Notes: generated from the sequence alone by a model not told the origin. DNA of 64,000 nt from an uncultured Phycisphaera sp. (GCA_964646605.1 CAZYEX010000053.1:14929-78928); one strand, 5' to 3'. Counted from the stretch's first letter, positions 47,429 to 64,000 are shown. Translations and numbers: made by a program.

Positions 47429-47482
47429 CCCATAGAGGGTCGTCTCGATGCGCTTTCAAACCCAACCCGAGAGGCGTCGTCC

Positions 47483-49609
47483 ATGAACATGCACCCCACG
47501 CTTTTGCATCGGGCCACGCTGGACGAATCCGTGGCGGCACGCTTGCGGGCGCTGGTGGCGCGCTTGCGCGGATACGTTCTTCTCGAAGGGATCGCTCAGG
47601 CGGCGCTGTTCGTCGTGCTTTGTGCGGCGCTGCAATTCGCTTTGGACTACGGCCTGCGCGGATTGCGCTGGAGCATGCGCGCCGCCCTCCTCGGGGCGGT
47701 CGTGGGGGCGACGGGTTGGCTGATCTGGCGGCGCATCATCGCTCCGTTGAGCGTTCGCATGGGGCTGCCGGAGGCCGCCAATCTGGTGGAGCGACGATTC
47801 CCCGAGTTGTCTTCCCTTCTCGTGTCCGCGGTCCGGTTTTCGAGCGGGCAGGTGGGCAATCGACAATCGAATTCCCCGGCCCTGATGTCCTCGGTCGTGG
47901 CGTCCGCGTCGCGACAGGCCTCGCGCTTAGACTTTCAGACGGTCCTCGATTCGCAACGTGCCCGGCGGTCGGGCATGACCACCTTCGGCGTCATCGTCCT
48001 TTTTACGCTTGCCGCATGGCTCGCTCCACAAATGGTGGGCACCTGGTTCGCTCGCAACGTTCTTCTGGAAGAGATCGCCTGGCCTCAGAAGACCTGGCTC
48101 AAGGTCGACGTCCCGCAAGGCGGGTTGGTGGGGGCGCGGGGCGACGACCTAGTCCTCCAAGCCCATGCCGAGGGCGTCCAGCCGCAGGCCGTGGAAATCT
48201 TTTTCACCTCCGCCACTGGCGACGAGGGTCGCGAGACCATGGTGACCGTGGGCAGCGAGGGGGCCTACCGCTATCGCTACACCTTCAAGGATGCGCAGGA
48301 AGATTTTAGGTTCCATCTTGCGGGCGGCGACGACGAAACGGAGGAGTTCGAGGTGCGCTTACGCGATCGGCCGCGGGTGGAGCATTCGCAGGTCCGCATC
48401 GTGCCGCCTTCGTATACGGGTTTGAGCGAATCGATCCTCGGCGACGGCGAACGCGCGGCGCAGATTCTCCCCGGCAGCGAGGTGACCTTCGACATTCGCG
48501 CCAACAAGCCGATCACGACGGCTTCGTTGATGGTCGGTGCCAAGGTCGCGGTATCGGCCTCAACGGACGGCGACCATGTCATCGCGTCCGTGCGACCCTT
48601 GGAAACGCAGACCTATCATTTCGCGCTGCTCGATGAGTTCGGCTTGGAAGACCGTCAACCGGCTCGCTTCGCCCTGCGGGTCATCAAGGACGAACCGCCG
48701 CGGGTTCGCATGAAACTTCCCGGCGTCGGCGAGATGATCACGCCGGACGCGGTGCTCCCCATTGAGATCGAGTTCAGCGACACGTATGGGTTGGCCTCGG
48801 CGGAACTCGCCTTCCAGGTCACCCGCGACGACGCCCGTGAAGGGACCATTTCGTTCGACGGTTTCTCGCCGAAGCAAACGACTTTTTCCACGTCGGTCCC
48901 CTGGCCCGTGAGCGCCGCAACGGTCGCACCGGGCGATCGCCTTACGCTTGTCGCCCGCGCCGCGGACTTTGACGACGTGTCCGGCCCCAACACGGGCCAG
49001 TCGGCTGAGTTTTCCATGCGCGTCGTCACTCGGGACGAGCTTTTGGCGGAATTGGCCCGTAAGGAACAAGAATTCCGCATGGACTTTGAGAGACTCATCG
49101 ACGCGCAGGAACAGCTTCGTGGCCGCCTCCTTACACTTATCGGACTTTCAACCGGCGACCGATCCACTGAATCTTTTTCCTTGGAGGCGTCGAATCTTGA
49201 AAGGCGACAAAGGTCGATTGCCGGGTCGGTAGGGGTGGTTCGGCAACAAGTGGAGCAGATTCTGGCCGAAATGCGTATAAACCAAGTGGCCACCCAGACC
49301 GTCGAGGAGCGGGTCGGGGGGGGCATTGCGGAGCCGCTGGGGCGGTTGATCACCCGCGATTTTCCTCTGGCGGCGGACACGATCCGGCAGTGGTCGCGGG
49401 AAGCCCAGGGTGAGGCCGGGGGGCGGGTGGACCCCCAGCAGGCTGCTTTGTTGTCACAAATGCGCGCCGTGCTGGCCAACATGCTACAATGGGAAGGGTA
49501 TCAGGAGGCGGTCAACATGCTCCGCGACATCCTTCGCTTGCAGCAGGAATTGCGAACGGAGACGAAGGATGCAGCGGGCAAGCAAGGGACCGGAGTGTTC
49601 GATGATTGA
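47483..49609 (+). CDS. DUF4175-like membrane protein (TMs, Ig-like domains, coiled coil)
   Basis: RLRALVARLR start, NLVERRFPELSSLLVSAV, WFARNVLL..WP, DEPPRV, AADFDDVSGPNTG. Confidence 0.8.
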   Translation: MNMHPTLLHRATLDESVAARLRALVARLRGYVLLEGIAQAALFVVLCAALQFALDYGLRGLRWSMRAALLGAVVGATGWLIWRRIIAPLSVRMGLPEAANLVERRFPELSSLLVSAVRFSSGQVGNRQSNSPALMSSVVASASRQASRLDFQTVLDSQRARRSGMTTFGVIVLFTLAAWLAPQMVGTWFARNVLLEEIAWPQKTWLKVDVPQGGLVGARGDDLVLQAHAEGVQPQAVEIFFTSATGDEGRETMVTVGSEGAYRYRYTFKDAQEDFRFHLAGGDDETEEFEVRLRDRPRVEHSQVRIVPPSYTGLSESILGDGERAAQILPGSEVTFDIRANKPITTASLMVGAKVAVSASTDGDHVIASVRPLETQTYHFALLDEFGLEDRQPARFALRVIKDEPPRVRMKLPGVGEMITPDAVLPIEIEFSDTYGLASAELAFQVTRDDAREGTISFDGFSPKQTTFSTSVPWPVSAATVAPGDRLTLVARAADFDDVSGPNTGQSAEFSMRVVTRDELLAELARKEQEFRMDFERLIDAQEQLRGRLLTLIGLSTGDRSTESFSLEASNLERRQRSIAGSVGVVRQQVEQILAEMRINQVATQTVEERVGGGIAEPLGRLITRDFPLAADTIRQWSREAQGEAGGRVDPQQAALLSQMRAVLANMLQWEGYQEAVNMLRDILRLQQELRTETKDAAGKQGTGVFDD
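47540..47571 (+). repeat. 32-bp direct repeat, copy 2 (inside gene 47483)
   Basis: CGCTTGCGGGCGCTGGTGGCGCGCTTGCGCGG. Confidence 0.85.
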
Positions 49610-51566
49610 CCCACGTCCCATCCGCGAGGGCGGAGCGCGCCTGGGCTTGCGCCGTGGGCGGCGGGGCGCATTCGCACTTCCTTCGCCGGCACGATTGTTG
49701 GCGGTTATGGCCATCTCTTTGTGGGGCGGGTTCCTGGCGAACACCGCAACTGCGACCGACACGACCCCACCGGCTGAATTTCACCCGCTGGCCTCGAAAG
49801 AGGAGATGATCCGGGATCGGTTCCAACGGTTCCAGGATCGGATCTTCCGACTGCGCGAGCAGCTTTCGCAAAGCGAGCCGGAGAATGCCGCACGGTTGGC
49901 ACGGGCGTTGACCCGCGCCGGCGAGTTGGGACTGGCCGAGAAACTCGAAGAGATCATTCGCCAACTTCGCGATTCGTCCTCCTTGGATCAGTCGGTGGAC
50001 GCGCAGGGAAGTTGGATCGAGGACGCCGATCGCCTGCTCAATCTTCTCCTGGAGCAAGACAGCAACAACGAAGAGCGGAAACGGGAATTGGAGCGTCTGG
50101 AGGCATACCGTCAAAAGCTCGCCGAGATTCTCGCCCAAGAAAAGGGACTGCGTGCGGACTCCGCCGACACGGGCGCGGCCGAGCGACTCTCCAAGCAGGT
50201 GGACCAAGCCCTTCGCCGCGCCGAGGCGCTGCTCAAGCGGCAGGAGAGTCTGTCTCAATCCACGCAGAAGCAGGCGGCGTCCGGCGGCGAGTCGTCCCGA
50301 CCGTTGGGTGACGAGCAACAGACACTTTCGCGCGACGCAGAGGAGCTGGCCAAAGAGTTGGAGCGGCTCAGTGCCGCACCGTCCGAACAGGCGGCGGAGT
50401 CGGGGCCCATGTCGGCGGCGCGGTCGCAGGTGCAGTCCGCAGGGGAATCCACGCAGAGCGCATCCGGTTCGATGTCCCAGGCAGGGCAGCAGTTGAGCGA
50501 AAACAAGCCTCCGGAGGCGAAGGAACCGCAGGAGAAGGCGGAAGAGTCTTTGCGCGAGGCGATCGAGCGCTTGCAGGAGGCCAAGAAGGAGCTGAGCGCT
50601 CCCAAGCAACCCCCGGCGGAAATGGCCGAAAAGCAGCGCGGCGTCGCCCAGCAAACCGGCGGGCTTTCCGACCAGATGCGTCAAGACGCTTCGTCCGAGC
50701 AGGGCGGTCAGCAAGGTCAGCCCAAAGAGGGTCAAAAGGGCGGCGGCAAGAGCGGCGCCAAAACCCCGGGGCTACAAAACCTCGACCAGGCCGAGCGAGA
50801 GATGAACGGGGCCGCGGAATCGCTCGACGCCAACACTCCCCAAGAAGCGACGCCCAAGCAGGACAAAGCCATCGCCGAGTTGGAACAGGCGCAGCAGGAA
50901 CTCGAACAAGCCCTCGAACAGCTTCGCAAGGAACAGCGCGAGGAGACGCTCCGCGATCTCGAGGCACGGTTTCGCGACATGCTCACCAAGCAGAGGCCCA
51001 TCAACGAATCGACGCTCGCTCTGGATCGCCTGGGGTCGTCCAACTTCCGTCGCGCCGAGGAGTTGCAGCTCGCCGATCTCTCGACGGCGCAGCGCGGGCT
51101 TTCCGAGCAGGCGGCGACGTGCCTGCACATTCTTGACGAGGAGGGTTCGACGATCGCGTTTCCGCGGGTGGTGGAACAACTCGCCGAGGACATGGCCGCG
51201 TCGGGGGAGCGTCTGGCGGGGCTGGACGTGGCGGCGATCACGCAGGCGATCCAGCAAGAAATCATTGACACGCTCGAACAGTTGCTCGAGTCGGTCAAGA
51301 AAATGCAACAAGAAAATGAACAATCGAATGGGTCGCAGTCGCAGAGCGACAAGGAGCCTCCGCTGCTGCCGGCCTCGGCGGAGCTCAAACTCCTGCGATC
51401 GAGCCAACTTCGAGTCAACACGCGGACGGCCACCATCGCCCAAAGCGCGGCGAGCGGCGTCGAGGATGTGCAAAAGGCGGCGCAGGCCTTGCGGAAACTC
51501 GCCGCCCGGCAGACCGAGTGTGCGGAAATTGCCAAGCAGATGCGCGATCGAGAACAGGGCCAGTAG
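49602..51566 (+). CDS. Secreted long coiled-coil protein (DUF4175-family-like)
   Basis: Signal-like segment, then Q/E-rich heptads; AELKLLRSSQLRVN motif; ATG49602 preferred. Confidence 0.75.
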   Translation: MIDPRPIREGGARLGLRRGRRGAFALPSPARLLAVMAISLWGGFLANTATATDTTPPAEFHPLASKEEMIRDRFQRFQDRIFRLREQLSQSEPENAARLARALTRAGELGLAEKLEEIIRQLRDSSSLDQSVDAQGSWIEDADRLLNLLLEQDSNNEERKRELERLEAYRQKLAEILAQEKGLRADSADTGAAERLSKQVDQALRRAEALLKRQESLSQSTQKQAASGGESSRPLGDEQQTLSRDAEELAKELERLSAAPSEQAAESGPMSAARSQVQSAGESTQSASGSMSQAGQQLSENKPPEAKEPQEKAEESLREAIERLQEAKKELSAPKQPPAEMAEKQRGVAQQTGGLSDQMRQDASSEQGGQQGQPKEGQKGGGKSGAKTPGLQNLDQAEREMNGAAESLDANTPQEATPKQDKAIAELEQAQQELEQALEQLRKEQREETLRDLEARFRDMLTKQRPINESTLALDRLGSSNFRRAEELQLADLSTAQRGLSEQAATCLHILDEEGSTIAFPRVVEQLAEDMAASGERLAGLDVAAITQAIQQEIIDTLEQLLESVKKMQQENEQSNGSQSQSDKEPPLLPASAELKLLRSSQLRVNTRTATIAQSAASGVEDVQKAAQALRKLAARQTECAEIAKQMRDREQGQ

Positions 51567-51589
51567 TCGCGCAATGGGGAGGTTGGGCT

Positions 51590-52612
51590 ATGCAAACAAC
51601 GGTTCGAGGAAGTTTGGCGCTTACGGTGGGCGCCTGGGTGGCTGTCGCAGGTGTCGTCCACGCGGCGGAGGTCGGACCGGTGGACCGCTTCCTCGTGGGA
51701 TTGGAGTCCGCGGCGCTTCCCGGTTCTGCCAAAACGCTGCTTCAAGAGCAGTGGAAAAAGTGTGACGGTTGCGACCCCCACGAGTTTCTCACGCAAGCCC
51801 TGGCCGTGGTGTCGAGCGAGTTCCGCGAGGGGCTGGATGCCTTCGACGCCGACGAGTACGAGCGCTGTGCGGGGCGCATGGCGGGGCTGACCCAAGACGC
51901 CGATCCCTTCCTCGCGGTCCACGCGGGGGTCTACGAGATCAAGGCCTTGGTGGAGTTGGAGCGGCTGGTCGAAGCCGGGGCGCGGATCGCGGAGCTGACC
52001 TCCGATGGCGGAGCGAAGCTCGCCGCACATTCCTACTTCGCCGCAGAGATCGAGTTCCTCCGCGGGTTCTGTATGGTGGCCGACCTGCAATACGACGCGG
52101 CGGAGGATGCCCTGGCGCGATTCCTGACGGAGTTCGGGGATGCGCCGCAGCGGTTGACTTTGGCCGCCAAGCAGATGCTCGCCGAGCTTGCCAACCGTGA
52201 GCCGGGTGGGATGGGCGAGGTCGCCGATTTGATGAACTACTCCGGGCGACGGCTGAAAAGCTCCGACGGCGGGGAGGTCGTCCAGACGCGCCAACAGCGC
52301 ATCCTCGAACTGCTCGACGCGCTCATCAAGGAGGCCGAGGAGCAGGAAAAGAAGAGTTGCAACAGCGGCGGATCAAGCGGTCGTGCCAGCGGCAAGTCAC
52401 CGGCCACACCCATGTCGGAATCGGGCCTGCCCGGCGGAAGTCCGCAAAGCGACGCCATGCGCGCCGCCCGCCGCGCCAACCCCGGCGAAGTCTGGGGCAA
52501 CATGCCCCCCGGCGAACGGGAACGCATCCTGCAGGCATTGCGGGAGAGCTTTCCGGCCCGCTATCGCCAACTTGTCGAGCAGTACTATGAGGAGCTTGCC
52601 AAGAAGCCGTAA
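51590..52612 (+). CDS. Secreted TPR-like helical protein
   Basis: Signal peptide; EVADLM...QQRILELLDALI; WGNMPPGERERILQ...FPARYRQLVEQYY tail typical of Bat-cluster terminal proteins. Confidence 0.7.
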   Translation: MQTTVRGSLALTVGAWVAVAGVVHAAEVGPVDRFLVGLESAALPGSAKTLLQEQWKKCDGCDPHEFLTQALAVVSSEFREGLDAFDADEYERCAGRMAGLTQDADPFLAVHAGVYEIKALVELERLVEAGARIAELTSDGGAKLAAHSYFAAEIEFLRGFCMVADLQYDAAEDALARFLTEFGDAPQRLTLAAKQMLAELANREPGGMGEVADLMNYSGRRLKSSDGGEVVQTRQQRILELLDALIKEAEEQEKKSCNSGGSSGRASGKSPATPMSESGLPGGSPQSDAMRAARRANPGEVWGNMPPGERERILQALRESFPARYRQLVEQYYEELAKKP

Positions 52613-52665
52613 GGCGAGGGAATCGAAGGTCGCCGGAGGGCCCTTGATGCCGAAGGTGATTTCCC

Positions 52666-52980
52666 GTGGTTGCCAACATTGACTTGAATCACGACGAACT
52701 TGCCCGACTTTGTCGGCGTCACGACATTCTGCGGTTATCGCTGTTCGGGTCGGTGTTGCGGAACGACTTCGCCCCAGGCAGCGACGTCGATGTGCTCGTG
52801 GAGTTCGATCCACAGGTCGTCGTCGGATTTCGGATTTTCCGCGTGGAGGAAGAACTTTCGCGGCTCTTTGGCGGGCGCTCCGTCGACCTGATCGACCCTC
52901 AGTACGTAAACCGATGCCTGCGCGAGCCTATCCTTTCCAGCGCTGAAGTCGTGTACGACGCGAACGATGGTCGGCGCTGA
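52666..52980 (+). CDS. mntA: MntA-type nucleotidyltransferase antitoxin
   Basis: FGSVLRNDFAPGSDVD = G-S-X10-D-X-D. Confidence 0.88.
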   Translation: MVANIDLNHDELARLCRRHDILRLSLFGSVLRNDFAPGSDVDVLVEFDPQVVVGFRIFRVEEELSRLFGGRSVDLIDPQYVNRCLREPILSSAEVVYDANDGRR

Positions 52981-53311
52981 TCGGATCTTCGTTCAGCAGA
53001 TGATCGACCACGGGCGCAAGGCGCTCGCGCGCATCGCGGACAAGCAGCACGCGGATTTCGACGCCGATGAGGACCTTCGGATCGTCGTTTTGCACTTGGT
53101 GCAGATCCTCGGGGAGGCCGCCCGCAAGGTGAGTCCCGATTTTCGCAACCTACATCCGCAGATTCCGTGGAACGACATCATTGGGATGCGGCACAAGATC
53201 GTCCACGACTACATGGACATCAACGAACGAATCCTGTGGGAAGTCGTTCGCTATGAACTCGGGCCGCTGCTGGAACGACTCGAGAGGCTGGTTTCCCACG
53301 CGCCTCGGTAG
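52967..53311 (+). CDS. hepT: HepT/DUF86 HEPN ribonuclease toxin
   Basis: GMRHKIVHDY = R-X4-H-X-Y; overlaps mntA. Confidence 0.88.
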   Translation: MVGADRIFVQQMIDHGRKALARIADKQHADFDADEDLRIVVLHLVQILGEAARKVSPDFRNLHPQIPWNDIIGMRHKIVHDYMDINERILWEVVRYELGPLLERLERLVSHAPR

Positions 53312-53338
53312 CCCCTCTTGGTCCTGTCGGAGCGGGTT

Positions 53339-55300
53339 TCACGGCTCGCAACTGACGCTCCGACAGACGCCTGGACAATCCTGCACACAGGCTTGGTGCT
53401 CGCCCTCGCTCACTTTGAGCCAACGGGCTGAGGCCCGGCCGAAGCGCGAGACCGTGGCGATCTGCGGATCGCCGCCGTCGAGGGTCAGGATCAGCTCCGT
53501 CCCTTGGGAAAATTGCGTGACCACGGTCGCCTGCAGAGTGAATGTCCCGCTGCGGCAGGTCAGGCGCATGCGGTTGACGTCGTCGCACGTTCCCGGGCAA
53601 GAGATGCTGTGCGCCGCAAAAGCATCGCAGATCGCTTCGCCGTGCGGCGTACCGTTGGAGATGTCGGCGTTGTCGTCGTCGACGGTGAGCACTTCGACGG
53701 CCGTCAGGGGATGGGCGCTGTTGCGAAGGCGGCCGCCGATGGTGATCTGCGACCAATCGGTGAACAACTGCCGAGCGTAGTCGAGCCCCATCGGCGCGCC
53801 CATCGAGGCTTGCAGGTTCAGCTTGAGGTCCCACCACACGCCGCCGAGCACTTGCCCGCAGTCATGCACCTCGCCGAAACAGGGGTATTGTTTGTTGGCG
53901 GTCACGATGTCGCGGACGGACGTTCCCGGTCCGATGAACTCGCGCCCGACCACGGGGTCGTCGTGTTGCAGGATGGCCGTGCAGTCGCCGAATCCCTCGC
54001 CGAACGCCCCTTGGGGAAGGTTGAGGCGGTCGACGATGAAATGGCCGTACTCATGGGCGACAACGGTGCTGTACGCCGTGTTCGGGCAACCCGATCCCGA
54101 GGCGAAGAAGTTGATCGACAGACCCACCGGCGTGAAGAACGCGTTGCACGTGCTGGGCATGTTCACGAAGCAATCGAGCGGAAGATCCAACCCGGTGAAC
54201 GCGGGTTGGCGCTGTTTGTAGAAGTTGTGCGTTGCGTTGGTGTGCAGGAAGGCGTTGACTTGCGAGGTCGTCGTTTCCGCGGGGGTGTCGTTGAAGAACA
54301 GGTCGGCGGGTCCCGGCGGGGTGACGGTCTGGTCGACGCGCAGCCCCTCGCCGCTAGAATCACGAGCGAAAACCCAGGGGCCGGAAAGAAGCGCGAACAC
54401 ATCTACGGGGTCCGTCCCGGCGTTGGACAGGATGAAGTCGCCGCCGGCGTCGGTGAGCGCCGACCCGCTGAGTTCGCGCTGCACCTCGAGCTCGGCGAGG
54501 TTCACGGCCACGGGTGCGTTGGTCGGCAAATCGGGCAGCAAGCCCGGAGTCGTTTTGCCGCTGGCGTGACCGAAGATATCGAGCTGGTAGACCTCATCTT
54601 GAACGTGAATCAGGTTTCCGTTCGACGCGTCGACGAAGAAGGTGTAGGCCGCGAAGTTCTCGCCGTGCGGCGTCGATCCGTGGAACTTCCAGGCGCGGAC
54701 TGGGTCATTGCGGAGAAAGCTGTCACCCGGCACAAAGACCACAAGCTGCGCTGGGGACCATTCGGTGAGTTCTGAAAAGACGGGGTTCGTTCGGACGGTT
54801 CGGATGGCGGCGTCGGCCTCCACGCGGTCCGCGGGGAACCCCAAAGTCGGTCGACGAGCGAATCGCCCCGCGGCGTACACGACGCGGGATCGCCCGCCGC
54901 CCGAGACGACCATGCGGCCGATGCCGCCCTCGACGGGCACGCCGTCGAAGGTTTGTTGCAAAACGGTGACGCTGAGGGCGCCGCCGCCCAGGGCATGGTG
55001 CGAAGCGATGCGCAGGTCGGCGACCCGCGCTCCGAGAACGCCCGCGTGGTGGTGAAGCCACGCTTGCACGGCCTTTTCGCCACCCGCGGCTACGGTCATC
55101 GGGCGGCCGTACACGGCGGGTTCATCCTCGTCGCCGTAGGCGATCCGCACGCCGGGGAACCGCGATTCGAGCAAGTCGCGGTCGGCCTGGGCAACCTCTG
55201 CGAGTGCCGATGGACCGTTCGACACCGCACTCGCGACGAAAATCGCCAGAACAACAGAGGCATTCAGCACCGATGGGCGCATCCGATAACTCATCATCAT
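53339..55300 (-). CDS. Secreted M4/M36 (thermolysin/fungalysin-like) metallopeptidase with FTP/PepSY-like prodomain
   Basis: Signal peptide, QQTFDGVPVEGG, YTFFVDASNG, CNAFF, VVAHEYGH (HExxH), FGEGFGD, VHDCG. Confidence 0.85.
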   Translation of the reverse strand: MMMSYRMRPSVLNASVVLAIFVASAVSNGPSALAEVAQADRDLLESRFPGVRIAYGDEDEPAVYGRPMTVAAGGEKAVQAWLHHHAGVLGARVADLRIASHHALGGGALSVTVLQQTFDGVPVEGGIGRMVVSGGGRSRVVYAAGRFARRPTLGFPADRVEADAAIRTVRTNPVFSELTEWSPAQLVVFVPGDSFLRNDPVRAWKFHGSTPHGENFAAYTFFVDASNGNLIHVQDEVYQLDIFGHASGKTTPGLLPDLPTNAPVAVNLAELEVQRELSGSALTDAGGDFILSNAGTDPVDVFALLSGPWVFARDSSGEGLRVDQTVTPPGPADLFFNDTPAETTTSQVNAFLHTNATHNFYKQRQPAFTGLDLPLDCFVNMPSTCNAFFTPVGLSINFFASGSGCPNTAYSTVVAHEYGHFIVDRLNLPQGAFGEGFGDCTAILQHDDPVVGREFIGPGTSVRDIVTANKQYPCFGEVHDCGQVLGGVWWDLKLNLQASMGAPMGLDYARQLFTDWSQITIGGRLRNSAHPLTAVEVLTVDDDNADISNGTPHGEAICDAFAAHSISCPGTCDDVNRMRLTCRSGTFTLQATVVTQFSQGTELILTLDGGDPQIATVSRFGRASARWLKVSEGEHQACVQDCPGVCRSVSCEP

Positions 55301-55409
55301 TTCCGCGAGGTCCTTTCGTATGGTCGGGCGTCGGCGTGCGTGAGCGACGGGTGGCGCCGATTGTCCCAACGTGAATGCCCCCCACTAGCCGACCGACAAC
55401 CCAGGCGAT

Positions 55410-55438
55410 AGCGTATAAACAATGACAGGAGATGTCAA
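55410..55438 (-). promoter_or_regulatory. Sigma70 promoter of the M4/M36 peptidase
   Basis: TTGACA-N17-TACGCT on the minus strand. Confidence 0.65.
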
Positions 55439-55459
55439 CGCGGCGAGATCAGAAAACGC

Positions 55460-56710
55460 ATGAAATCAGTCCGCTTTGGACGTTCATTCCGGGTTGGAAT
55501 ACTCCGACTGTCTGCGGTTGGGGTCGTCCTCACGGCACACTTTACGGCGACCGCGTCGGCGGAGACAACCGTTCAAGCAGTTCGAATTGATGGAACCGGC
55601 GTCTCCGGCGTCTGGCTGGGTGTCGGGCCTGATGGCGCGGTGCGGCTGCAAGGTGCACAAGGTGCGGCGACGCTCCCGCCGGATGAGCTGTCCTCGGTTC
55701 GATTTCCGACAGGCCCGAGCGCTCCGCCTGGCGCCAGTTCGTTTTTCCTCTCCGACGGCGGCCGACTTCAGGGCACGCTTGGCGGCGGAGATGCGGAGTC
55801 GGTGATCGCCCAAACGATCCTGTCGGAGAATACGCGCTTGCCCTTCTCCGCTCTGGCGGGAATCCGGCTGGTTGCCGTCGAGGAAACCGAGAAGTCCGAA
55901 GAACTTTTTCAGGCGGCGTTTCGAGCCCGATTGCCCGGACAGGACGTGCTGATCGCCCGCGAAGGCGATGAGGTCAAGTCCATTCGCGGACGATTGGAAA
56001 CACTGGAAGCGCAGCGCGGGGCGTTCGTCCTAGGCGAGCGATCGCGCCCCTTCCAGACGGAGAAGATGTACGGCGTCGTTTTCGCAGCGGGGCTGGCCAG
56101 ATCGACCGCGCTGCCCGTGACGGTCGAGCTTTCCGACGGGTCGAGCTTCGCGGGGACGATCGAGCGGGCAGACGAATCCACCATCCGAATCGGCGCGTCG
56201 TTTGGGACGGCGCTCGACGTGGCGACGAGTCGGGTCGTCAAGTTGACGTTCCGCAGTCCGCGGGTGGTGTATGTGAGCGATCTATCGCCGGTCGGGGAAC
56301 GGGTGGAGGGTCTGGTGCATCGACCCTGGCCGATCCGACGCGACCTGTCGGTGTCCGCCAAGCCCTTGTCGATCGACGGTCGGGTTTTCGACAAGGGGTT
56401 GGGGGTTCACAGCCGGACGGAGTTGGACTACGACCTTGGCGGCGGCTACGAGTTGTTTGTGGCTACCGTGGGGATCGACGACGCGGTGCGGCCGCTGGGC
56501 AGCGTGGTCTTCCGCGTCATCGGCGACGGCCGTACGCTTTGGGATAGCGGGTCGGTCAGCGGACTGGATGCCCCGCGTGAGGTTCGCGTGGAGGTCGGCG
56601 GAGTCAAACGTTTGACGCTGGCGGTGGATTACGGAGACGGGCTGGACCTCTCGGACCAAGCCGACTGGGGCGGGGCTCGTTTGATACGACCGGTGGATCG
56701 CAAGCCATGA
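55460..56710 (+). CDS. Secreted NPCBM/NEW2 domain protein
   Basis: C-terminal FDKGLGVHSRTELDYDL...ATVGIDD...GSVVFRVIGDG...DQADWGGARL. Confidence 0.88.
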   Translation: MKSVRFGRSFRVGILRLSAVGVVLTAHFTATASAETTVQAVRIDGTGVSGVWLGVGPDGAVRLQGAQGAATLPPDELSSVRFPTGPSAPPGASSFFLSDGGRLQGTLGGGDAESVIAQTILSENTRLPFSALAGIRLVAVEETEKSEELFQAAFRARLPGQDVLIAREGDEVKSIRGRLETLEAQRGAFVLGERSRPFQTEKMYGVVFAAGLARSTALPVTVELSDGSSFAGTIERADESTIRIGASFGTALDVATSRVVKLTFRSPRVVYVSDLSPVGERVEGLVHRPWPIRRDLSVSAKPLSIDGRVFDKGLGVHSRTELDYDLGGGYELFVATVGIDDAVRPLGSVVFRVIGDGRTLWDSGSVSGLDAPREVRVEVGGVKRLTLAVDYGDGLDLSDQADWGGARLIRPVDRKP

Positions 56711-58437
56711 GGTCGATGTTCGCAAAGCGGGCGGCGCTGGGGCTCTTGTGTCTCGCCTGCCAGATACCCGTCACTTACGCCGATTCCCTGAACCTACCCG
56801 ATGCGATTCGCCGGGCGGAGGAAGCCCGCGTGGAGATGATCCAGCGCGTGGCGCCGAGCGTGGTGTCCGTTTTCGACGCTCGTCAACGCGGCGGCGGATC
56901 GGGCGTAGTGATTGACGCGCAAGGGTATGGTCTGAGCAATTATCACGTCGTTGCGGAGATGCTCGAAACGCGCCGTGGATGGGGGGGGCTCAGCGACGGG
57001 AAACTGTACGAGCTGGAAGTCTTGGGGATCGACCCGACCGGCGACGTAGCCATGTTTCGCCTGATCGGCGGGGAACCCTTCGCACATGTTGACCTCGGCG
57101 ACTCGGACGCGGTGCGCGTGGGTGACACGGTTCTGGCCATGGGCAATCCGTTTTCCATCAGCGAGGACTACACGCCGACGGTGACCTTGGGCATGGTGAA
57201 TGGCGTCCACCGCTATCAGTCGGGCGTGGGGAAGAACCTGGTTTATTCCGACTGCCTTCAAGTGGACGCGGCCATCAATCCTGGCAACTCGGGCGGGCCT
57301 CTGTTCAACCTGGCGGGCGAGGTCATCGGCATCAACGGCCGGATTTCGGTCAATCGTCGCGGTCGGCTCAACGTTGGTTTCGGGTATTCGATCGCCGCCA
57401 ATCAGATCAAGCGTTTCCTTCCCACGCTACGAGCGGGTTTGCAGGCCAAACACGGGACGCTCCAAGCGACGTTGGACGCCGTGGCCGAGGGAAGCGTGGC
57501 TTTTTCGAAGATGGGCGCGGAGTCCAACGTCGCCCGCATGGGGATTCGCAGCGGCGACCGACTCCTTCGCTTCGACGACGTACCCATCGCCTCGGGCAAT
57601 CAATATGCGGGACTTCTGGGGGCCTACCCGGCGGACTGGCCGGTGCCCCTCCACATCGAGCGCGACGGGCAGCAGCGTGAAGTGATCGTCCGTCTCGATG
57701 CCGAGAACCCCAAGTCGCGCCGGCCCTTCGCCCCCGACCGCGCCGTGAATTTCCGCGAGATCGAACGCGTGCTTCGCAACTTCCAGAGCGCATCCTTTGC
57801 CGGCGGGATCGCGCGCCGACCGCAGAGCTGGAAGTGGAAGGTGACCCGCGAGGAAATCGGCGTAGCCGACGGCGCTCAGCGCCTCGAGGTCTACGACGTT
57901 TCGCAGGTCGGCGACGGCCCGATGCGCATGCAGCGGCGCTACGACGACGGCTCGGCGGGTTCGCTTTTCACGGCCACGGAGCGGACGGTGACCGAGTCAC
58001 TGCCCCGCGAGGGCGGCGAAATTGAGCCTCGTTTGGAGGTCAAGATGGCGCTACACGCGCTGTACGTCATGCAGCGCTGGCTTCTGGAACCGGTCGAGGC
58101 CATCGACCTGACCGGCGTGCATCACGTCGGCGGAGACCGATGGATGCAAAGGGCGTCCTCCGCGACTGCTTTATCGCCGCGACAAGCCCGCGATCGGGTC
58201 CTGGACGTTCTGGAATGGGCGGTCGGCGAGCAGGCGTGGGCCAAGTTCGGGTTCGACGGCGACGGCGGGCGATTGGTCTACATTCGCGTGCGCGACGTAT
58301 TGACCGGAAGCGAGGTGACCGTGGACCTTTCCGATCACCGGGACATCGGCGGGATTGTCTGGCCCGGCCGAATGGACCTCACCCTCGGCGGTCGTCAGTA
58401 TCGTGATGTCCTCTCCGATTGGGAACTTACTCCGTGA
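56707..58437 (+). CDS. HtrA/DegP-like (S1C) protease + PDZ + extra C-terminal domain; triad intact
   Basis: GSGVVI, SNYHV, GDVA, DAAINPGNSGGP. Confidence 0.9.
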   Translation: MRSMFAKRAALGLLCLACQIPVTYADSLNLPDAIRRAEEARVEMIQRVAPSVVSVFDARQRGGGSGVVIDAQGYGLSNYHVVAEMLETRRGWGGLSDGKLYELEVLGIDPTGDVAMFRLIGGEPFAHVDLGDSDAVRVGDTVLAMGNPFSISEDYTPTVTLGMVNGVHRYQSGVGKNLVYSDCLQVDAAINPGNSGGPLFNLAGEVIGINGRISVNRRGRLNVGFGYSIAANQIKRFLPTLRAGLQAKHGTLQATLDAVAEGSVAFSKMGAESNVARMGIRSGDRLLRFDDVPIASGNQYAGLLGAYPADWPVPLHIERDGQQREVIVRLDAENPKSRRPFAPDRAVNFREIERVLRNFQSASFAGGIARRPQSWKWKVTREEIGVADGAQRLEVYDVSQVGDGPMRMQRRYDDGSAGSLFTATERTVTESLPREGGEIEPRLEVKMALHALYVMQRWLLEPVEAIDLTGVHHVGGDRWMQRASSATALSPRQARDRVLDVLEWAVGEQAWAKFGFDGDGGRLVYIRVRDVLTGSEVTVDLSDHRDIGGIVWPGRMDLTLGGRQYRDVLSDWELTP

Positions 58438-59492
58438 ACGGCAAAGCGTTGTTTTTGGCCTGTTTCTCGCTCGTCGGTGGTATGTCCGCGGGGGGCGGTG
58501 AGTTCGATCGGGCGATCGAGACGGTCCTGCCGAGAGTCGTGAAGCTGTACGGACTGGGCACGGGTCAACAGGTCGGCTATGGCACCGGTGTGTTGGTTTC
58601 ATCGGACGGGCTGGTGCTCACCGTGTTTTCGCTGTTGATTGACGCCCGCAAGGTCCGGGCGGTGACGGAAGATGGCACGGTGCTCGAGGCCGAGGTCGTC
58701 CGCCGCGACGCCAAGCGGCAACTCGCCCTGCTTCGACTGCGGCAGTCCGGGGGCGGTACCCAGGGGGATACCGCGCCGCGACCGTTTCCCTATTTCGATC
58801 TTGCCTGCACCGCAAGCGGCGACGCGAATTCGCCCGCAGCGCTGAAGCCCGGTGATTGGGTGGTGGTGGCGGGCAACCCCTTCAAGGTGGCCGACGGGGC
58901 CGAACCCGTCACCGTCTCGCACGGACTCTTCTCGGCGCGCACACGCATGGACGCCCGGCGAGGCGTCAAGGATTTCCCCTACCGCGGCGAGGTGTTGGTG
59001 TTGGATACCGTGACCAGCAACCCCGGGGCGCCGGGCAGCGCCGTGGTCGATCTTGACGGTCGTTTCGTGGGGATGGTGGGGCGGGAAGTGATTTCCAACC
59101 TGACCCATACGCACTTCAACTATGCGATGCCCCGCGATGTCTTGTGCGAGTTTCTTCTCGAAGCCGCGGCCCCGCCGGGGATGGCGGCGAGTGCCGAAGC
59201 TATGTCATCCACCGAACCGCCGGCGAGCCGCGATCCGGGCATCCGTCTGGTCCGTACGGGCTACCAAAGACTCCCACCGATGGTGGAGCGCGTTCGCCGC
59301 GGTTCGCTTGCGGAGCGGGCCGGCGTGCGGCCTGACGATTTGATTCTCTCCGTCAACGGCAGGCAGGTGGCCGACGTCGAGGAGTACGCCGAGCGGTTGG
59401 AATCCGTTTCGTCTGACGAACCGATCGAACTGGTCATTCGCCGCGACCGGACGATCCACTCGATCCGCATCGAGGCGGAGAAAAAACCATGA
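58419..59492 (+). CDS. HtrA-like pseudo-protease + PDZ
   Basis: GTGVLV; LTVFSL (no His); SNPGAPGSA (Ser to Pro). Confidence 0.85.
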   Translation: MGTYSVNGKALFLACFSLVGGMSAGGGEFDRAIETVLPRVVKLYGLGTGQQVGYGTGVLVSSDGLVLTVFSLLIDARKVRAVTEDGTVLEAEVVRRDAKRQLALLRLRQSGGGTQGDTAPRPFPYFDLACTASGDANSPAALKPGDWVVVAGNPFKVADGAEPVTVSHGLFSARTRMDARRGVKDFPYRGEVLVLDTVTSNPGAPGSAVVDLDGRFVGMVGREVISNLTHTHFNYAMPRDVLCEFLLEAAAPPGMAASAEAMSSTEPPASRDPGIRLVRTGYQRLPPMVERVRRGSLAERAGVRPDDLILSVNGRQVADVEEYAERLESVSSDEPIELVIRRDRTIHSIRIEAEKKP

Positions 59493-60679
59493 CCCGTCGC
59501 ATCGCGACCCGGTTCATCGCCGCCGCTTGTCTGTGCCTGGCAGGCCAAACGAGCCTCGGCGCCCCCGAGGCGTCCGGCGACTCGACGCTTCGCGCCATGC
59601 AGGACCAATTCCGCCGCGTCGCCGATCGGCTGCGGCCCTGCATGGTTCGCATCGAGACGGTGGGCGGAACCCAACCCACGGCTCCGCAAGCTCCGCGGGA
59701 GGAAAAGAGCGACCCAGACGAGGGCGGCGAACCGAACGAGCCGAAAAAACCGCGCCTGCAAAATCCCTTCCGCGAGGAGGTGGGTTCGCGGTTCGCGGTT
59801 GCGGACGGTCCGACGACCGGACTGGTCTGGTCGTCCGACGGGTACATCGTCACCAGCAGCTTCAACTTCGTCCGCGAGCCGGCGCTGGTGTCGGTGGTGC
59901 TTGCGGACGGTCGGCGATTGGCGGCGGATGTCGTGGCTCGGGATCAGGTCCGCAAGATTGCTTTGCTGAAGATCGACGCCCGCGACCTTCCGGTCCCCAC
60001 GTGGACCGATCTGCAGGACGTCCGCGTCGGAGAATCGGTGGTGGCGCTGGGGCTAGGGTTTGGGACCGAGGCGCCGTCGCTCACCGTGGGCATCGTCAGC
60101 GCCTTCAACCGTATGCGCGGCAACGCCTTGCAGACCGACGCCAAGCTCAGTCCGGCGAACTACGGCGGACCGCTCTGTGATCTGTACGGACGAGTGCTGG
60201 GCATCAACGTCCCCATGGCCCAACGACCCGGCGAATTGGCGGGCGCGGAGATGTATGACTCCGGAGTGGGATTCGCCGTGCCCAAGGAGCGGCTGGACGC
60301 CATCGTCGGCGAGCTGGTGACCGGTCGATCGTTTTATCGCGGCTGGTTGGGGCTGAACATCGAGCCGCGGATCGTGGACGCGTTGGTGATTCACAACGTC
60401 GCCGATCCCTCGCCGGTCAGGGCCGCGGGTCTGCTGCCGGGCGACAAGATCCTCACCATCGACGGTCGGCGAATCAATCACTACGGGAACCTCGTGCAGT
60501 CCCTCAACATGCGTCCGGCGGGCGAGGAAGTCCTCTTGGAGGTGGACCGCAACGGCGCCGCCTTCAGCGTAAAGGTTCGATTGGGGCGGATCGACGAACT
60601 GGGCCCCATGCCCGAGCTCGAAGAGCCGTTCGACCCGTCGAACCCGCTCCCCGCGCCCGAGCCGGAAGAGAACCCCTGA
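59489..60679 (+). CDS. HtrA-like pseudo-protease + PDZ
   Basis: TTGLVW; VTSSFN (no His); LSPANYGGP (Ser to Tyr); RGWLG + PDZ. Confidence 0.85.
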   Translation: MTRRIATRFIAAACLCLAGQTSLGAPEASGDSTLRAMQDQFRRVADRLRPCMVRIETVGGTQPTAPQAPREEKSDPDEGGEPNEPKKPRLQNPFREEVGSRFAVADGPTTGLVWSSDGYIVTSSFNFVREPALVSVVLADGRRLAADVVARDQVRKIALLKIDARDLPVPTWTDLQDVRVGESVVALGLGFGTEAPSLTVGIVSAFNRMRGNALQTDAKLSPANYGGPLCDLYGRVLGINVPMAQRPGELAGAEMYDSGVGFAVPKERLDAIVGELVTGRSFYRGWLGLNIEPRIVDALVIHNVADPSPVRAAGLLPGDKILTIDGRRINHYGNLVQSLNMRPAGEEVLLEVDRNGAAFSVKVRLGRIDELGPMPELEEPFDPSNPLPAPEPEENP

Positions 60680-60755
60680 CGGGTCGATAGTGGACTCTGC
60701 ATTGGCGCGGAGATTCGAAAGTATCGCTACTTGGGGGCGCGTACATCGTCGTTCG

Positions 60756-60782
60756 GCGTCACCCACAAGAGGTGACGCTACA
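60756..60782 (-). repeat. GTAG-type REP (family A)
   Basis: TGTAGCGTCACCTCTTGTGGGTGACGC. Confidence 0.8.
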
Positions 60783-60817
60783 TGGGGAAACGGTCCGCGT
60801 CGTGGTTCCAGGGTCCG

Positions 60818-63800
60818 TCAAGGGTCGAAACTCTTCTGAAACTCCGCGACATCCAGCATGTCCACGTCCCCATCGCCGTCGAAGTCGAACGGTTCGCAGC
60901 CGGGACTTCGCTCCACGTCCGGTCCGGTGGTGCAACCGGCGAGCAGGTCCGCGTCCACGAGATCCACGTCGTCGTCGATGTCACCGTCGCCGAAGCGCGT
61001 GATGATCACCGTGAGGTTGGCGACGGCGCTGGTCACGCTCCCGCAATCGTTGGTGACTACCACGTCGTATTCGCCGGGATGAGCGAGGGTTGCGGTGCCG
61101 ATCCGCAGGACGCTGGTATTCGCACCCGAGATCACGGCGCCGTTGTTGAGGTTGTTTCCGTTTCGACGCCATTGGTAAGTATGGGTCGGCGCCCCCTTGG
61201 CCGTCACGGAGAACTGCACCGGTTGGCCGGACACCACGGCGCGATGCTTAGCTTGGCGAACGATCTCCACGCGGTCCGCATCGACCAGCTCCCAGGTATC
61301 CCCCGGCACGAAACCGCTGGGTCCGCCGCCCCCGAACTGCACGATCGCGTTGCGGGCACTGTCATACGCAATGGCCCCACCCGCGGATCGAGGCGGACCG
61401 TCACTGTGCGACAGTAGTTTCCACGCCGCGCCGTCGAAACTCCAGGTGACCTGGATCGGATCGCTGAGCCGGTACGCGCCGTTGTTCCAAATGACCGTTT
61501 GGCGACCTTGGTGATAGGCGATTCCCGCACCGCCGGTGTACATACCCGGGTTGCGGTACACGGGGTCGTTGGCCGGAAAGATCCGCACCCATTGGGCGCC
61601 GTCCCACTCGAAGGTGTGCATATCCCAGTTGAAATCCGGAGCAAGCCAGCCGTTGAATGCGAATCGCTTATTGCGGGCGATATCATAGGCGATCGCCCCG
61701 ACATCCACGTAACCTCCGGGTGGAAGGTCCGGCAAACCGGATGAAATCTGTATCCACGTGCCTGCGACGCCGTCGAACTCCCAAGTGTCGTGCGCGTAGA
61801 ACGGTCCGCCCGGGGGGTCGATAAACCCGCTAAAGAGCACAGTTTTCTTGGCCGTAGAGTCGTACACCATACCGTGCCCGACGCGCCTCGCCGGTCCGGT
61901 CGTTACCCGCTGCGTCCAGGAGTTACCGTCCCATTCCCACGTGTCGTCAAGGAATCCGTAGGGGGACTGCGACCCGACGCCCAATCCGCCGAAGAGCACG
62001 CACGTGCCCCGGTCGCTGTCATAGGCCATTCCGGCGTCCCTCCGCGCGGTTGGACCGTTTGTGGCCCGCAGCGTCCACGTGTTCCCATTCCATTCCCACG
62101 TCTCGCGGTTGAAGCTGGAATAATCCGGATACAGGCCGCCGAACAGGACGGTCACGCCGCGTCGGCTGTCATACGCCATGCTCGGTCCGTAACGATAGGA
62201 CGGCCCCGTCGTCGCTGCGGTCGTCCACGGTTTGTACGCGACCGACAGCCCCACGGGGTTGCTGGTGCTGGAATCACAATCATTGGCGATGCGGACGGTG
62301 TATTGGCCGTTATCCGAATAGAGCAGGCCGTCGAAGGCGAGGTCCTCGGCCTGCGATCCGGTGCGGTGATCGTCGTCGGCAAGCGCCACGTTGTTCTGAC
62401 GCCATTGGTACATGAACGCGGGGATGCCGTTGCTGACGGCGTCGAACGTGGCGTCCTGACAGACGGTGTGCGGCCCGCCGCCGAAAATCGGAGAGGCCGT
62501 CGGGGGGATCACGTGCAAGCCCGCGGCGAAGGTGGCCACGGGAGAGCAGAGGGCGTTGGAAATAAGGGCCCGGTAGGTCACCTGCCCGTCGAAGGGGAAG
62601 ACGCGATCAATGGTCATGGTGTCGGTCGAGGTCCCTCGGGTGCGGATGTCGTCCACGAGGTACTCGAAGTCGAATAGGCCGTATTGCCATCGGAAGTTCA
62701 TGTCGTCAGGCCCCGTGGACGCCGCGTGAAAAGCGGCCGTTCCGCAGGCGGGCACGTTGATCGTTGCGGGGTGCTCGGCTACGTTGGGGCAGATGCGAAC
62801 CGTCCCCGCGCTGACCGCGTAGTGATTCCCGTTGAATGCGTCGGAGTAAAGCAGCGGAAATGCGCCGACGAAGTAATCGCCGGAGGCGACTTCGGGAATC
62901 GCCTTGACGACGTGGGCCTCGCCCACAGCGCCGCCGTTGAGGTTCACCGACGTAGCGCCCAGCAACGTGTCACCGACGGTCACGTTGTTGTCGGTCGAAA
63001 GGCGGAACTCGAGGAGGGGAACCGAAACGGGCCCCACGCCCACGTTGGTGACGGACGCCCCCGCGTCCAGGGACTCCCCATGCAAGTAGGAACTCGCGGC
63101 TACGGCAAATGCCGAGCGAAGGTCGAAGTCGCCCGGCGGCTGATCCGCCTCGCGTCCGAACCAGACGCTGACCGGGACGACGTTGGCCGCATTCGGGCCG
63201 TTGAGGTAATGCCCCGAGGAAAGGTACGTCCGATCGTCGAGCCAATGCAGTTGTGTCGAGAAGTAATCGCCCCAACGGTTACCGGCCGGCGGCGTAGCCG
63301 TGCCCGTGCCCGCCGGGACCAGCTCCGTGCCCGCGAAAGTGTGGTTGTTGTACCCATCGACGATGAATACACAGGGCACGGGGTGCTCGGCGCCGCCGCC
63401 GATCGCCACCACACCGCCCTTACCCCCGCCGGAGTTGGGATGAACCGAAGGGTAAGTGAGGGCAAACTGGTTGCTCCACATCGGCTCGGTGGTCAGGTAT
63501 CCCCGATCCGACTCGCGGACCTTGATCACGTCCACGTAGGGATAGGGGAAGTTCTCGTTTTGGGCGGAGGCGCGCAGGAAACCGAGTTCGCCGTTGGAGC
63601 GATAAGCGCCAAGGAGACGATTGTCGGCGCCCTGACAGTAGTTCCGCCCGCCCGGACCGGTACAAAGGAAGTTCCCGCCCGTCAGATCCGGATGATCCAC
63701 GTCGTCGAACGCCACCTCGTTGGAATCCTCGAACCAGCGGTGGATGCGAATCTCGTCGAGCAACTGCTGCTGCCCGCAGAAGGCCGTGTCGCCCGCGCCG

Positions 63801-64000
63801 CGCACGCACCGAACCGGCGAGCCCGCCGCGTAGTTGGCGAATTGGAACCCGATCCCGCCCCCGTCCTTCAGGTCGTCCAGCCCAATTCGCATGAGCACTT
63901 CCGCTTGCGAGGCCGCGGGCGTCGCATTGTTGAACACCCGCGTGGTGATCCACAGAAAGTCATCGGAAACGGTCAAGTCCGGAAAGTCCAGCCAGAACGC
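60818..64000 (-). CDS. Large secreted mosaic protein, 5' end outside the window: RWGDY-type domain, CARDB-like and I-set Ig domains, Kelch propeller, dockerin-like tail
   Basis: Frame open to the window edge; GNRWGDY; YQWRxNxxxL Ig repeats; MAYDSxRxxxVLFGG...TWEWxG Kelch repeats; FDFDGDGDVDMLDVAEFQKSF. Confidence 0.88.
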   Translation of the reverse strand, partial: AFWLDFPDLTVSDDFLWITTRVFNNATPAASQAEVLMRIGLDDLKDGGGIGFQFANYAAGSPVRCVRGAGDTAFCGQQQLLDEIRIHRWFEDSNEVAFDDVDHPDLTGGNFLCTGPGGRNYCQGADNRLLGAYRSNGELGFLRASAQNENFPYPYVDVIKVRESDRGYLTTEPMWSNQFALTYPSVHPNSGGGKGGVVAIGGGAEHPVPCVFIVDGYNNHTFAGTELVPAGTGTATPPAGNRWGDYFSTQLHWLDDRTYLSSGHYLNGPNAANVVPVSVWFGREADQPPGDFDLRSAFAVAASSYLHGESLDAGASVTNVGVGPVSVPLLEFRLSTDNNVTVGDTLLGATSVNLNGGAVGEAHVVKAIPEVASGDYFVGAFPLLYSDAFNGNHYAVSAGTVRICPNVAEHPATINVPACGTAAFHAASTGPDDMNFRWQYGLFDFEYLVDDIRTRGTSTDTMTIDRVFPFDGQVTYRALISNALCSPVATFAAGLHVIPPTASPIFGGGPHTVCQDATFDAVSNGIPAFMYQWRQNNVALADDDHRTGSQAEDLAFDGLLYSDNGQYTVRIANDCDSSTSNPVGLSVAYKPWTTAATTGPSYRYGPSMAYDSRRGVTVLFGGLYPDYSSFNRETWEWNGNTWTLRATNGPTARRDAGMAYDSDRGTCVLFGGLGVGSQSPYGFLDDTWEWDGNSWTQRVTTGPARRVGHGMVYDSTAKKTVLFSGFIDPPGGPFYAHDTWEFDGVAGTWIQISSGLPDLPPGGYVDVGAIAYDIARNKRFAFNGWLAPDFNWDMHTFEWDGAQWVRIFPANDPVYRNPGMYTGGAGIAYHQGRQTVIWNNGAYRLSDPIQVTWSFDGAAWKLLSHSDGPPRSAGGAIAYDSARNAIVQFGGGGPSGFVPGDTWELVDADRVEIVRQAKHRAVVSGQPVQFSVTAKGAPTHTYQWRRNGNNLNNGAVISGANTSVLRIGTATLAHPGEYDVVVTNDCGSVTSAVANLTVIITRFGDGDIDDDVDLVDADLLAGCTTGPDVERSPGCEPFDFDGDGDVDMLDVAEFQKSFDP

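Follow-up and report, generated by a model that had tools for sequence, protein, structure and literature searches.

The Four-Gene Locus and Its Products

A row of four genes for secreted proteins, three of which encode HtrA homologs, was analyzed in a stretch of 64,000 nucleotides (nt) from an uncultured Phycisphaera sp. (GCA_964646605.1 CAZYEX010000053.1:14929-78928), the whole of which is referred to here as the window. The genes occupy positions 55,460 to 60,679 and are numbered in order (Table 1): gene 1 encodes an NPCBM/CBM51 protein, gene 2 a live HtrA protease, and genes 3 and 4 two dead HtrA paralogs. The original prediction, made from the window alone, had described this arrangement as three tandem HtrA proteins, one active and two catalytically dead, each with a signal peptide and a PDZ domain, coupled to an NPCBM protein by overlapping stop and start codons and forming an obligate heterotrimer of one protease and two chaperone or substrate-selector subunits that serves an upstream Bat-like envelope complex. 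The overlaps are indeed present in the DNA at all junctions as ATGA, GTGA, and ATGA, four bases being shared each time (CCATGA between genes 1 and 2, CCGTGA between genes 2 and 3, and CCATGA between genes 3 and 4). Because GTGA overlaps the stop codon of gene 2, the start of gene 3 is most likely the GTG at 58434 and not the TTG at 58419. The exported nature of the products was judged by eye, and all four have a positively charged N-terminus, a hydrophobic core, and a cleavage site with small residues; the described combination of signal peptide and PDZ thus holds for the signal peptides of all HtrA copies, whereas the PDZ domain is clear in genes 3 and 4 and weak in gene 2. None of the four C-termini has a conserved hydrophobic end that could serve as a PDZ ligand.

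Table 1. Genes, domains, and neighboring features of the HtrA locus in the window (positions in nt unless marked aa, amino acids; AF2, AlphaFold2; ORF, open reading frame)
Feature	Position	Strand	Length	Remarks
Gene 1	55460-56710	+	416 aa	Secreted NPCBM/CBM51 protein
Four small beta-barrel modules, gene 1	aa 37-264			AF2 model
NPCBM/CBM51 domain, gene 1	aa 269-410, 56264-56689	+		Pfam, AF2, and Foldseek
Gene 2	56707-58437	+	576 aa	Live HtrA protease
Protease domain, gene 2	~56896-57426	+		
Degenerate PDZ, gene 2	~57454-57711	+		Weak Pfam match, 19 bits against a cut-off of 27
Predicted LolA/LolB/RseB-like half-barrel, C-terminus of gene 2	aa 336-576, 57712-58434	+		AF2 and Foldseek
Gene 3	58434-59492	+	352 aa from GTG	Dead HtrA
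Canonical PDZ, gene 3	~59238-59471	+		
Gene 4	59489-60679	+	396 aa	Dead HtrA
Canonical PDZ, gene 4	~60338-60583	+		R-G-W-x-G loop invariant
Bat-like envelope operon	39318-52612	+		Pfam, NCBIfam
BatA_N/VWA protein	39318-41612	+		PF07584 E 4e-14, TIGR02226 E 1e-18, VWA_2
VWA-like protein	41727-44210	+		Weak VWA match
Lineage-specific insert in Bat-like operon	Between 44210 and 47483			
Three unnamed conserved genes	47483-49609, 49410-51566, 51518-52612	+		
Insert between Bat-like operon and cassette	52613-55459		2.8 kb	Holds 676-aa ORF 53339-55369 (-)
Next gene downstream	60818-63976	-		Kelch/Ig repeats

One Live and Two Dead Catalytic Sites

The protease domain of gene 2 matched Trypsin_2 in Pfam (expect value (E) 6e-28) and was aligned with DegP in the PDB (E 3e-33), with the catalytic triad in register and the alignment continuing through PDZ1. 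All three catalytic residues are present, namely His80 (56944-56946, in NYHV), Asp113 (57043-57045, in GDVA), and Ser195 (57289-57291, in GNSGG), and the alignment to solved HtrA structures bears out the intact triad that had been assigned to this copy. Genes 3 and 4 are related to the same structures by fold. Gene 3 matched Trypsin_2 (E 8e-20) and PDZ_6 (E 1e-15), was aligned to the HTRA2 structure, and found its PDB HtrA match with E 6e-13; at the triad positions, His is replaced by Ser (TVFS, 58629-58631), Asp by Gln (KRQLA, 58719-58721), and Ser by Pro (GAPGS, 59031-59033). Similarly, gene 4 matched Trypsin_2 (E 4e-24) and PDZ_2 (E 4e-11), was aligned to a DegP-like structure (PDB HtrA match, E 5e-30), and has Asn126 in place of His (SSFNF, 59864-59866), Lys156 in place of Asp (VRKIA, 59954-59956), and Tyr225 in place of Ser (PANYGG, 60161-60163). 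The codons at all triad positions were checked in the DNA. The loss of His and of the nucleophile in both copies, as originally described, is therefore confirmed; the Asp is also gone in both, which had escaped remark.

Outside the triad positions, much of the HtrA architecture has been kept in the two dead copies, including the fold itself, the canonical peptide-binding loops of PDZ, and, within the L1 loop, the GG-P portion. In gene 4, a long loop as in DegP follows the N-terminal strand, and the tail, rich in Pro and acidic residues, is conserved. In NCBIfam, genes 2, 3, and 4 all fall into the Do/HtrA subfamily, with scores well under the equivalog cut-offs, and their pairwise identity is 25-27 %. 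As the triad has been lost, genes 3 and 4 are homologs of HtrA by fold and descent and cannot be filed as peptidases.

Distribution and Conservation of the Trio

The occurrence of this gene set was investigated by a scan with one genome per species, from which 80 loci were kept in genomes or metagenome-assembled genomes of Phycisphaerae and Planctomycetia; 57 of them had enough upstream DNA for gene order to be judged. A relative of gene 4 was present in at least 592 species-level genomes. The order 1-2-3-4 was found in 48 of the 57 informative loci, the same number as had a gene 1 ortholog, and three further loci of one clade (L003, L005, and L011) had genes 2-3-4 without gene 1. Genes 1-3 were missing upstream in another five of the 57 (L023, L038, L046, L047, and L039). 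Four of these five group in one clade together with L030, which has a short flank and lies outside the 57, while L039 stands elsewhere on the tree; the separation of gene 4 from genes 1-3 in the clade of L023, L030, L038, L046, and L047 is read, from its grouping, as a probable single relocation. Two candidates were rejected in the course of this survey. The apparent loss of genes 1-3 in L049 falls in an assembly gap (runs of N), and the 1968-aa ORF in L023 that resembled a gene 4 fusion runs antisense through GC-rich DNA and is spurious.

In three of the five loci with a relocated gene 4 (L038, L046, and L047, not L023 or L030), the gene adjoins another active HtrA gene. At L038:8084-9340 (-), and likewise in L046 and L047, gene 4 is divergent to this canonical HtrA, in which the triad is intact (Trypsin_2, E 7e-32, plus PDZ).

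The state of each triad is remarkably uniform across orthologs. Among the locus orthologs of gene 2, His, Asp, and Ser occur in every row that covers the respective columns (57, 60, and 61 of 61, the remainder being alignment gaps), and the same three residues were found in all 48 gene-2 parts of the gene 2-3 fusions discussed below. The corresponding columns of gene 3 hold Ser, Ala, Gly, or Thr, then mostly Gln, then Pro or Ala, with no His in the first of these columns in 63 locus orthologs or 145 representatives. Those of gene 4 hold Asn, Lys or Arg, and Tyr or Phe; more than 2900 homologs of this gene were detectable, the best 120 of which, at 56-70 % identity, all had Asn, Lys, and Tyr (Phe). 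No restored triad was found among ~360 gene-4 homologs (120 + 240) or 150 gene-3 representatives (50 % clusters). Since the same substitutions recur in hundreds of orthologs, the pattern is not due to chance, and its conservation across Planctomycetota, which had been put forward as a check, was borne out in that it is fixed in the locus, homolog, and representative sets alike. In gene 4, the conservation of the very residues that replaced the triad suggests a rebuilt pocket rather than mere loss.

These data bear directly on the simplest explanation, according to which the dead copies are functionless, decaying duplicates or annotation noise. Such a view is prompted by the loss of all three catalytic residues, but reading frames are intact in hundreds of species, the substituted residues are themselves conserved, and the ratio of nonsynonymous to synonymous substitution rates (dN/dS, Nei-Gojobori) in close pairs is low throughout (gene 2, 0.10-0.22; gene 3, 0.12-0.33; gene 4, 0.05-0.30). 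In addition, the median identity of genes 1-4 with their counterparts in the window was 40, 47, 47, and 54 %, respectively, in a set of 50 loci, so that gene 4 is better conserved than the live gene and is the highest of the four. As judged from these comparisons, the dead copies appear to be constrained at least as much as the live one, and neither of the signs that were expected to speak against dedicated partners, restored triads and relaxed selection, was seen (~360 and 150 homologs; dN/dS 0.05-0.33). The evidence supports the view that the dead copies are ancient, selected partners of the live copy and not decaying duplicates, an explanation that we consider extremely improbable.

A likely counterpart of the four-gene block exists in Planctopirus limnophila, where Plim_1808-1811 correspond to it by annotation and gene order and follow genes annotated as MoxR AAA_3 and DUF58. 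Protein searches with Planctomycetia-type gene 4 queries gave no named Planctopirus protein as a sequence match to this block. Homologs of Plim_1808, 1809, and 1811 have been reported in 28-30 of 45 Planctomycetes, in no further genome of the Planctomycetes-Verrucomicrobia-Chlamydiae (PVC) group, and in 0-2 of 4655 prokaryotes (PMC10632474).

Junction Coupling and Recurrent Gene Fusions

The four-nt stop/start overlap is maintained unequally along the cassette, occurring at 44 of 52 junctions between genes 2 and 3 and 44 of 56 between genes 3 and 4, compared with 16 of 42 between genes 1 and 2; genes 2-3-4 therefore form a tight core, with gene 1 as a looser partner. In some lineages the core genes are even joined. 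Genes 2 and 3 are fused in one ORF in eight of the species-level loci and genes 3 and 4 in one, a hydrophilic linker taking the place of the internal signal peptide, and the 2-3 fusions represent at least three events on the species-level tree of gene 4. When 1.84 billion cluster representatives were searched exhaustively for gene 3, 196 matches were obtained at E <= 1e-30, the best 150 of which were classified: 98 were free gene 3 proteins, 48 were 2-3 fusions, two were 3-4 fusions, and two were 2-3-4 fusions. One of the triple fusions (P0374, at L084:424-3639) is a complete chain of 1071 aa with a single N-terminal signal peptide and three protease-PDZ units, whose triad positions read H-D-S, S-Q-P, and N-K-Y in order; its contig translates exactly to the protein and has a gene 1 ortholog in front. 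The median hydrophobicity ahead of the gene-3 domain was 0.90 in fusions versus 2.40 in free gene 3, and the absence of this hydrophobic segment indicates that the fusions are real and do not result from frameshifts or indels. Another representative, P0439 (1511 aa), carries ~650 residues of Ala/Leu-rich, HEAT-like helical repeats in addition to a 2-3 fusion.

Because the fusions are collinear, recurrent, and equimolar, they constitute Rosetta-stone evidence for a complex with one copy of each protein. Comparative evidence thus speaks well for a joint assembly of the live paralog with its two dead counterparts, presumably in equal amounts, and the part of the original heterotrimer claim that has gained ground is that the three act in one complex, through the 2-3, 3-4, and 2-3-4 fusions and their lost internal signal peptides.

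A different reading of the same genes is that they form three independent homo-oligomers of one pathway, with gene 2 as an ordinary homotrimer and genes 3 and 4 as separate non-catalytic holdases or binders that act on the same clients. It is well established that DegP without its triad retains chaperone activity. A low pairwise identity and the presence of gene 4 at another locus in one clade also fit separate assemblies, as do the normal homo-oligomerization of HtrA proteins, given in the DEG7 report (PMC3194040), and the failure to detect contact between MamE and its triad-less partner MamO (PMC4794232). Against three independent assemblies stand, however, the recurrent collinear fusions, including the triple one, in which internal signal peptides have been lost, the coupling over four nt at ~80-85 % of the 2/3 and 3/4 junctions, and the strict co-occurrence of the trio, and we regard this arrangement as quite improbable.

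A LolA-Like Tail on the Live Protease and a Predicted Sugar-Binding Partner

The C-terminal part of gene 2 (aa 336-576) had no match in Pfam or NCBIfam. An AF2 model of this tail of ~240 aa was of high quality, with a predicted local distance difference test (pLDDT) value of 92.6 and a predicted template modeling (pTM) score of 0.89, and the best Foldseek match was 3buu of the LolA superfamily (E 2e-9, template modeling (TM) scores 0.60/0.64). LolB, LolA, RseB, and MucB were among the further matches, with TM scores to RseB of 0.23-0.26, and sequence identity to all fold matches was just 5-16 %. The model predicts the open beta-barrel with a helical plug that characterizes the LolA/LolB fold; the tail would share this fold without belonging to the LolA/LolB family by sequence. 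Its length is kept in 51 orthologs at low sequence conservation, and it is missing in some short fusions, such as P0374. No mention of HtrA together with a LolA-like domain was found among the top-ranked results of a literature search.

In gene 1, the C-terminal domain matched the NPCBM family over nearly its whole length (PF08305, E 1e-36, profile positions 2-136 of 137), and solved CBM51 structures were matched by a profile search. The AF2 model of the protein is all-beta (pLDDT 91.6, pTM 0.86) and was superimposed by Foldseek on 2vmg, a galactose-binding CBM51, with a target TM score of 0.87 and a root-mean-square deviation of 1.8. By sequence and modeled fold, this domain is a CBM51 and a predicted sugar binder.

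The Bat-Like Operon and the Flanks of the Cassette

Upstream of the cassette in the window lies an operon that appears, from its domain matches, to combine proteins with a BatA_N double-transmembrane anchor and VWA proteins, as in Bat/MoxR-VWA operons; no MoxR or DUF58 gene adjoins it there. In 21-41 of the 80 loci, the cassette is preceded by orthologs of the genes that start at 41727, 47483, 49410, and 51518; the ortholog of 51518-52612 is the immediate upstream neighbor of gene 1 in 39 of 46 loci. In one complete genome of 5.5 Mb, the row from Bat-like operon to cassette is uninterrupted. The predicted link to this operon is thus supported by synteny (39 of 46 loci), but the operon is not a constant neighbor: in the clade of L003, L005, and L011, gene 1 and the Bat-like genes are both absent from the 7 kb upstream of the trio, and an insert of 2.8 kb separates operon and cassette in the window. 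A trio that can stand without gene 1 and the Bat-like genes makes the link a frequent and not an obligatory one. The 676-aa ORF in this insert had no Pfam match at E 1e-3. It also precedes gene 1 in L001, L010, L013, L018, and L064, at 46-57 % identity, and its being kept in place in five related loci means that the insert is common to a clade and not strain-specific.

Some indication of expression came from an RNA-labeled run of freshwater sediment, kept as contigs only and possibly containing DNA, in which contigs with 100 % identity covered much of the cassette and spanned the 1/2 and 3/4 junctions; the uneven depth across the region argues for RNA. In the same run, word depth was ~10.6 in the tail of the Bat-like operon (51000-53100), compared with 0-3 in the insert (53100-55500) and 1-7 in the HtrA cassette, which hints at separate transcription levels of operon and cassette in this genome.

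The remaining surroundings consist of a DinB-family gene upstream of 39318, with MnmA and GT9 genes on the other strand, and of the Kelch/Ig-repeat gene downstream, whose opposite orientation means that the transcription unit stops at gene 4. Consensus scans gave no promoter-like site upstream of gene 1 and no terminator above chance rate. Just past gene 4, several contigs from a DNA run end or overlap in a stretch of 31-40 bp (60749-60788) in which word depth is doubled (28.9 versus ~14), a pattern suggestive of a short repeat or of a break in the assembly.

Comparison with Known HtrA Systems

HtrA proteins with pseudoprotease partners are a known kind, to which the trio belongs; a description of one live and two dead HtrA proteins acting as a trio was not found in the literature. 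The closest precedents are MamE/MamO and DEG7, MamE/MamO being the closest. MamO is devoid of a triad and is required for MamE-dependent proteolysis (PMC4794232). As in the cassette, the gene for an active HtrA is clustered with that for a pseudoprotease of HtrA descent, the old active-site region of MamO has been repurposed, and duplication followed by triad loss has arisen repeatedly (PMC4794232). A degenerate triad in an HtrA-derived domain beside an active HtrA, the feature typical of MamO, was recognized by sequence comparison in genes 3 and 4. In contrast, MamE and MamO are membrane-bound proteins of the magnetosome with a single dead partner, for which neither fusions nor a detectable contact have been reported (PMC4794232). 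Neither the TauE transporter domain at the C-terminus of MamO nor its di-His metal site was seen in genes 3 and 4, and the NCBIfam model of MamO gave weak partial matches, far under the cut-off. The trio differs further in having two distinct dead paralogs, in the LolA-like domain that the live paralog carries, and in its phylum-wide conservation in Planctomycetota.

Tandem HtrA proteins also exist in fungi, as Nma111p/Ynm3p. In DEG7 and Nma111p/Ynm3p, an active and a degenerate protease domain work within the same assembly, the latter being specialized for protein-protein contact, and their domain order is shared by the 2-3 fusions. Both systems are eukaryotic and always single-chain, with one dead domain, four PDZ domains, and a homotrimeric assembly, whereas the default in the trio is three separate genes in a bacterium, two of them for non-equivalent dead paralogs, with periplasmic products and an operon that includes CBM51 and Bat-like genes. 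The presence of an active and a degenerate domain in one chain, which defines DEG7, is not found in the window, where the genes are separate, and is confined to the fused orthologs.

The plant protein suggests another geometry for the complex, in which the dead domains of gene 3 and/or gene 4 would form a trimeric scaffold and the live gene 2 domains would hang from this core, without any 1:1:1 pseudo-trimer. DEG7, each chain of which combines an active with a degenerate protease domain, is a homotrimer held together through the degenerate domain (PMC3194040), and because of this mode of trimerization such a scaffold has to be weighed seriously against a 1:1:1 ring. The repetition of the DEG7 domain order in the common 2-3 fusions is in line with it, and so is the conservation of the dead copies, which exceeds that of the other parts. 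Nevertheless, a single 2-3-4 chain and a fixed set of three genes fit one copy of each most simply, and DEG7 has one dead domain where there are two distinct ones here, which are never merged or lost. On balance, a scaffold of this type is unlikely.

Several other systems share single aspects with the trio. DegS, which acts in the sigma-E envelope stress response of E. coli, is an HtrA homotrimer with three live sites, a membrane anchor, and PDZ-gated allostery, and RseB of the same pathway is a separate, two-domain LolA-like sensor of lipid or lipopolysaccharide that binds RseA. In the cassette, the live HtrA itself carries a LolA/RseB-like domain, a likeness limited to fold similarity, and genes for RseA, RseP, or sigma-E were not observed in the four-gene block. 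Hetero-oligomeric proteases built from paralogs, as proposed for the trio, are also represented by the chloroplast Deg5-Deg8 hetero-hexamer, in which both proteins are active and are thought to stack as homotrimers, and by the ClpP/ClpR ring, of which the dead paralog ClpR is an obligatory subunit; the latter has another fold and is ATP-dependent. Classical Bat (Bacteroides aerotolerance) operons, unlike the block described here, have no HtrA trio or NPCBM protein.

A Proposed Hetero-Oligomeric Machine

Taken together, it seems probable that the products of genes 2-4 assemble in the periplasm into one hetero-oligomeric HtrA machine that has just one catalytic site; an equimolar, pseudo-symmetric 1:1:1 trimer would be its simplest form. 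We infer its physical assembly, stoichiometry, allosteric gating, and substrate, together with the geometry, the role of the dead subunits, and the client, along the following lines. Gene 2 would supply the sole His-Asp-Ser triad and, in most lineages, also a LolA/RseB-like pocket for a hydrophobic ligand. The former active sites of the other two subunits would have been rebuilt, with small residues in gene 3 and a conserved set of Asn, Lys/Arg, and Tyr/Phe in gene 4. It is possible that the dead protomers bind peptide or ligand cues and then gate the live site, as in the neighbor-protomer allostery of DegS and DegP, and that the outcome is limited, specific cuts and not processive degradation. 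Gene 1 may act as a looser, glycan-binding accessory. The module is usually the last part of a Bat-like BatA/VWA operon, and some portion of that envelope system is probably its target for processing or quality control.

Several points weigh against a hetero-oligomer of this kind. HtrA proteins are normally homo-oligomers, and canonical trimer contacts may have been lost, as the paralogs are just 25-27 % identical. The fusions give proximity and stoichiometry and not geometry, so that a DEG7-like or a stacked trimer also fits. Fusions are dispersed almost at random over the tree of the 50 %-cluster representatives, with 39 changes, at least 25 of them forced, which implies either many fusion events or an unreliable tree; the event count from this tree is distrusted, and the minimum of three from the species-level tree is the usable figure. 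One clade has gene 4 away from genes 2-3, and the sediment run, as mentioned, may owe part of its signal to DNA. Finally, Plim_1808-1811, the likely counterpart by annotation, are non-essential in the laboratory, where all four genes tolerate transposon insertions (PMC10632474).

A more elaborate version of the machine can be formulated, which we find possible yet doubtful. It would be an obligate asymmetric HtrA heterotrimer of Planctomycetota, present as one polypeptide in some lineages, in which one catalytic protomer is gated in trans by two non-equivalent PDZ pseudoproteases; a LolA/RseB-like domain would provide lipid-sensing input, the CBM51 protein would serve as an adaptor on envelope glycan, and single regulated cuts would be made in a component of the Bat-like VWA complex.

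Implications for HtrA Biology and Planctomycetota

HtrA proteins are textbook homo-oligomers that are regulated by cross-talk between identical protomers. The recurrent natural fusions of the trio genes are new here, and a phylum-wide system of one live and two dead copies, if true, would be a natural experiment in HtrA allostery, showing which protomer senses and which cuts. It would also be a bacterial case of pseudoenzymes as fixed protease subunits, comparable to ClpR for ClpP, and the asymmetric heterotrimer, if correct, would combine a sensor and an effector of the DegS/RseB type in one ATP-independent machine. Moreover, a protease with a probable single site offers a first handle on the long-unexplained Bat/MoxR-VWA envelope systems, and the system looks tractable, since P. 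limnophila has, by annotation, the same gene row.

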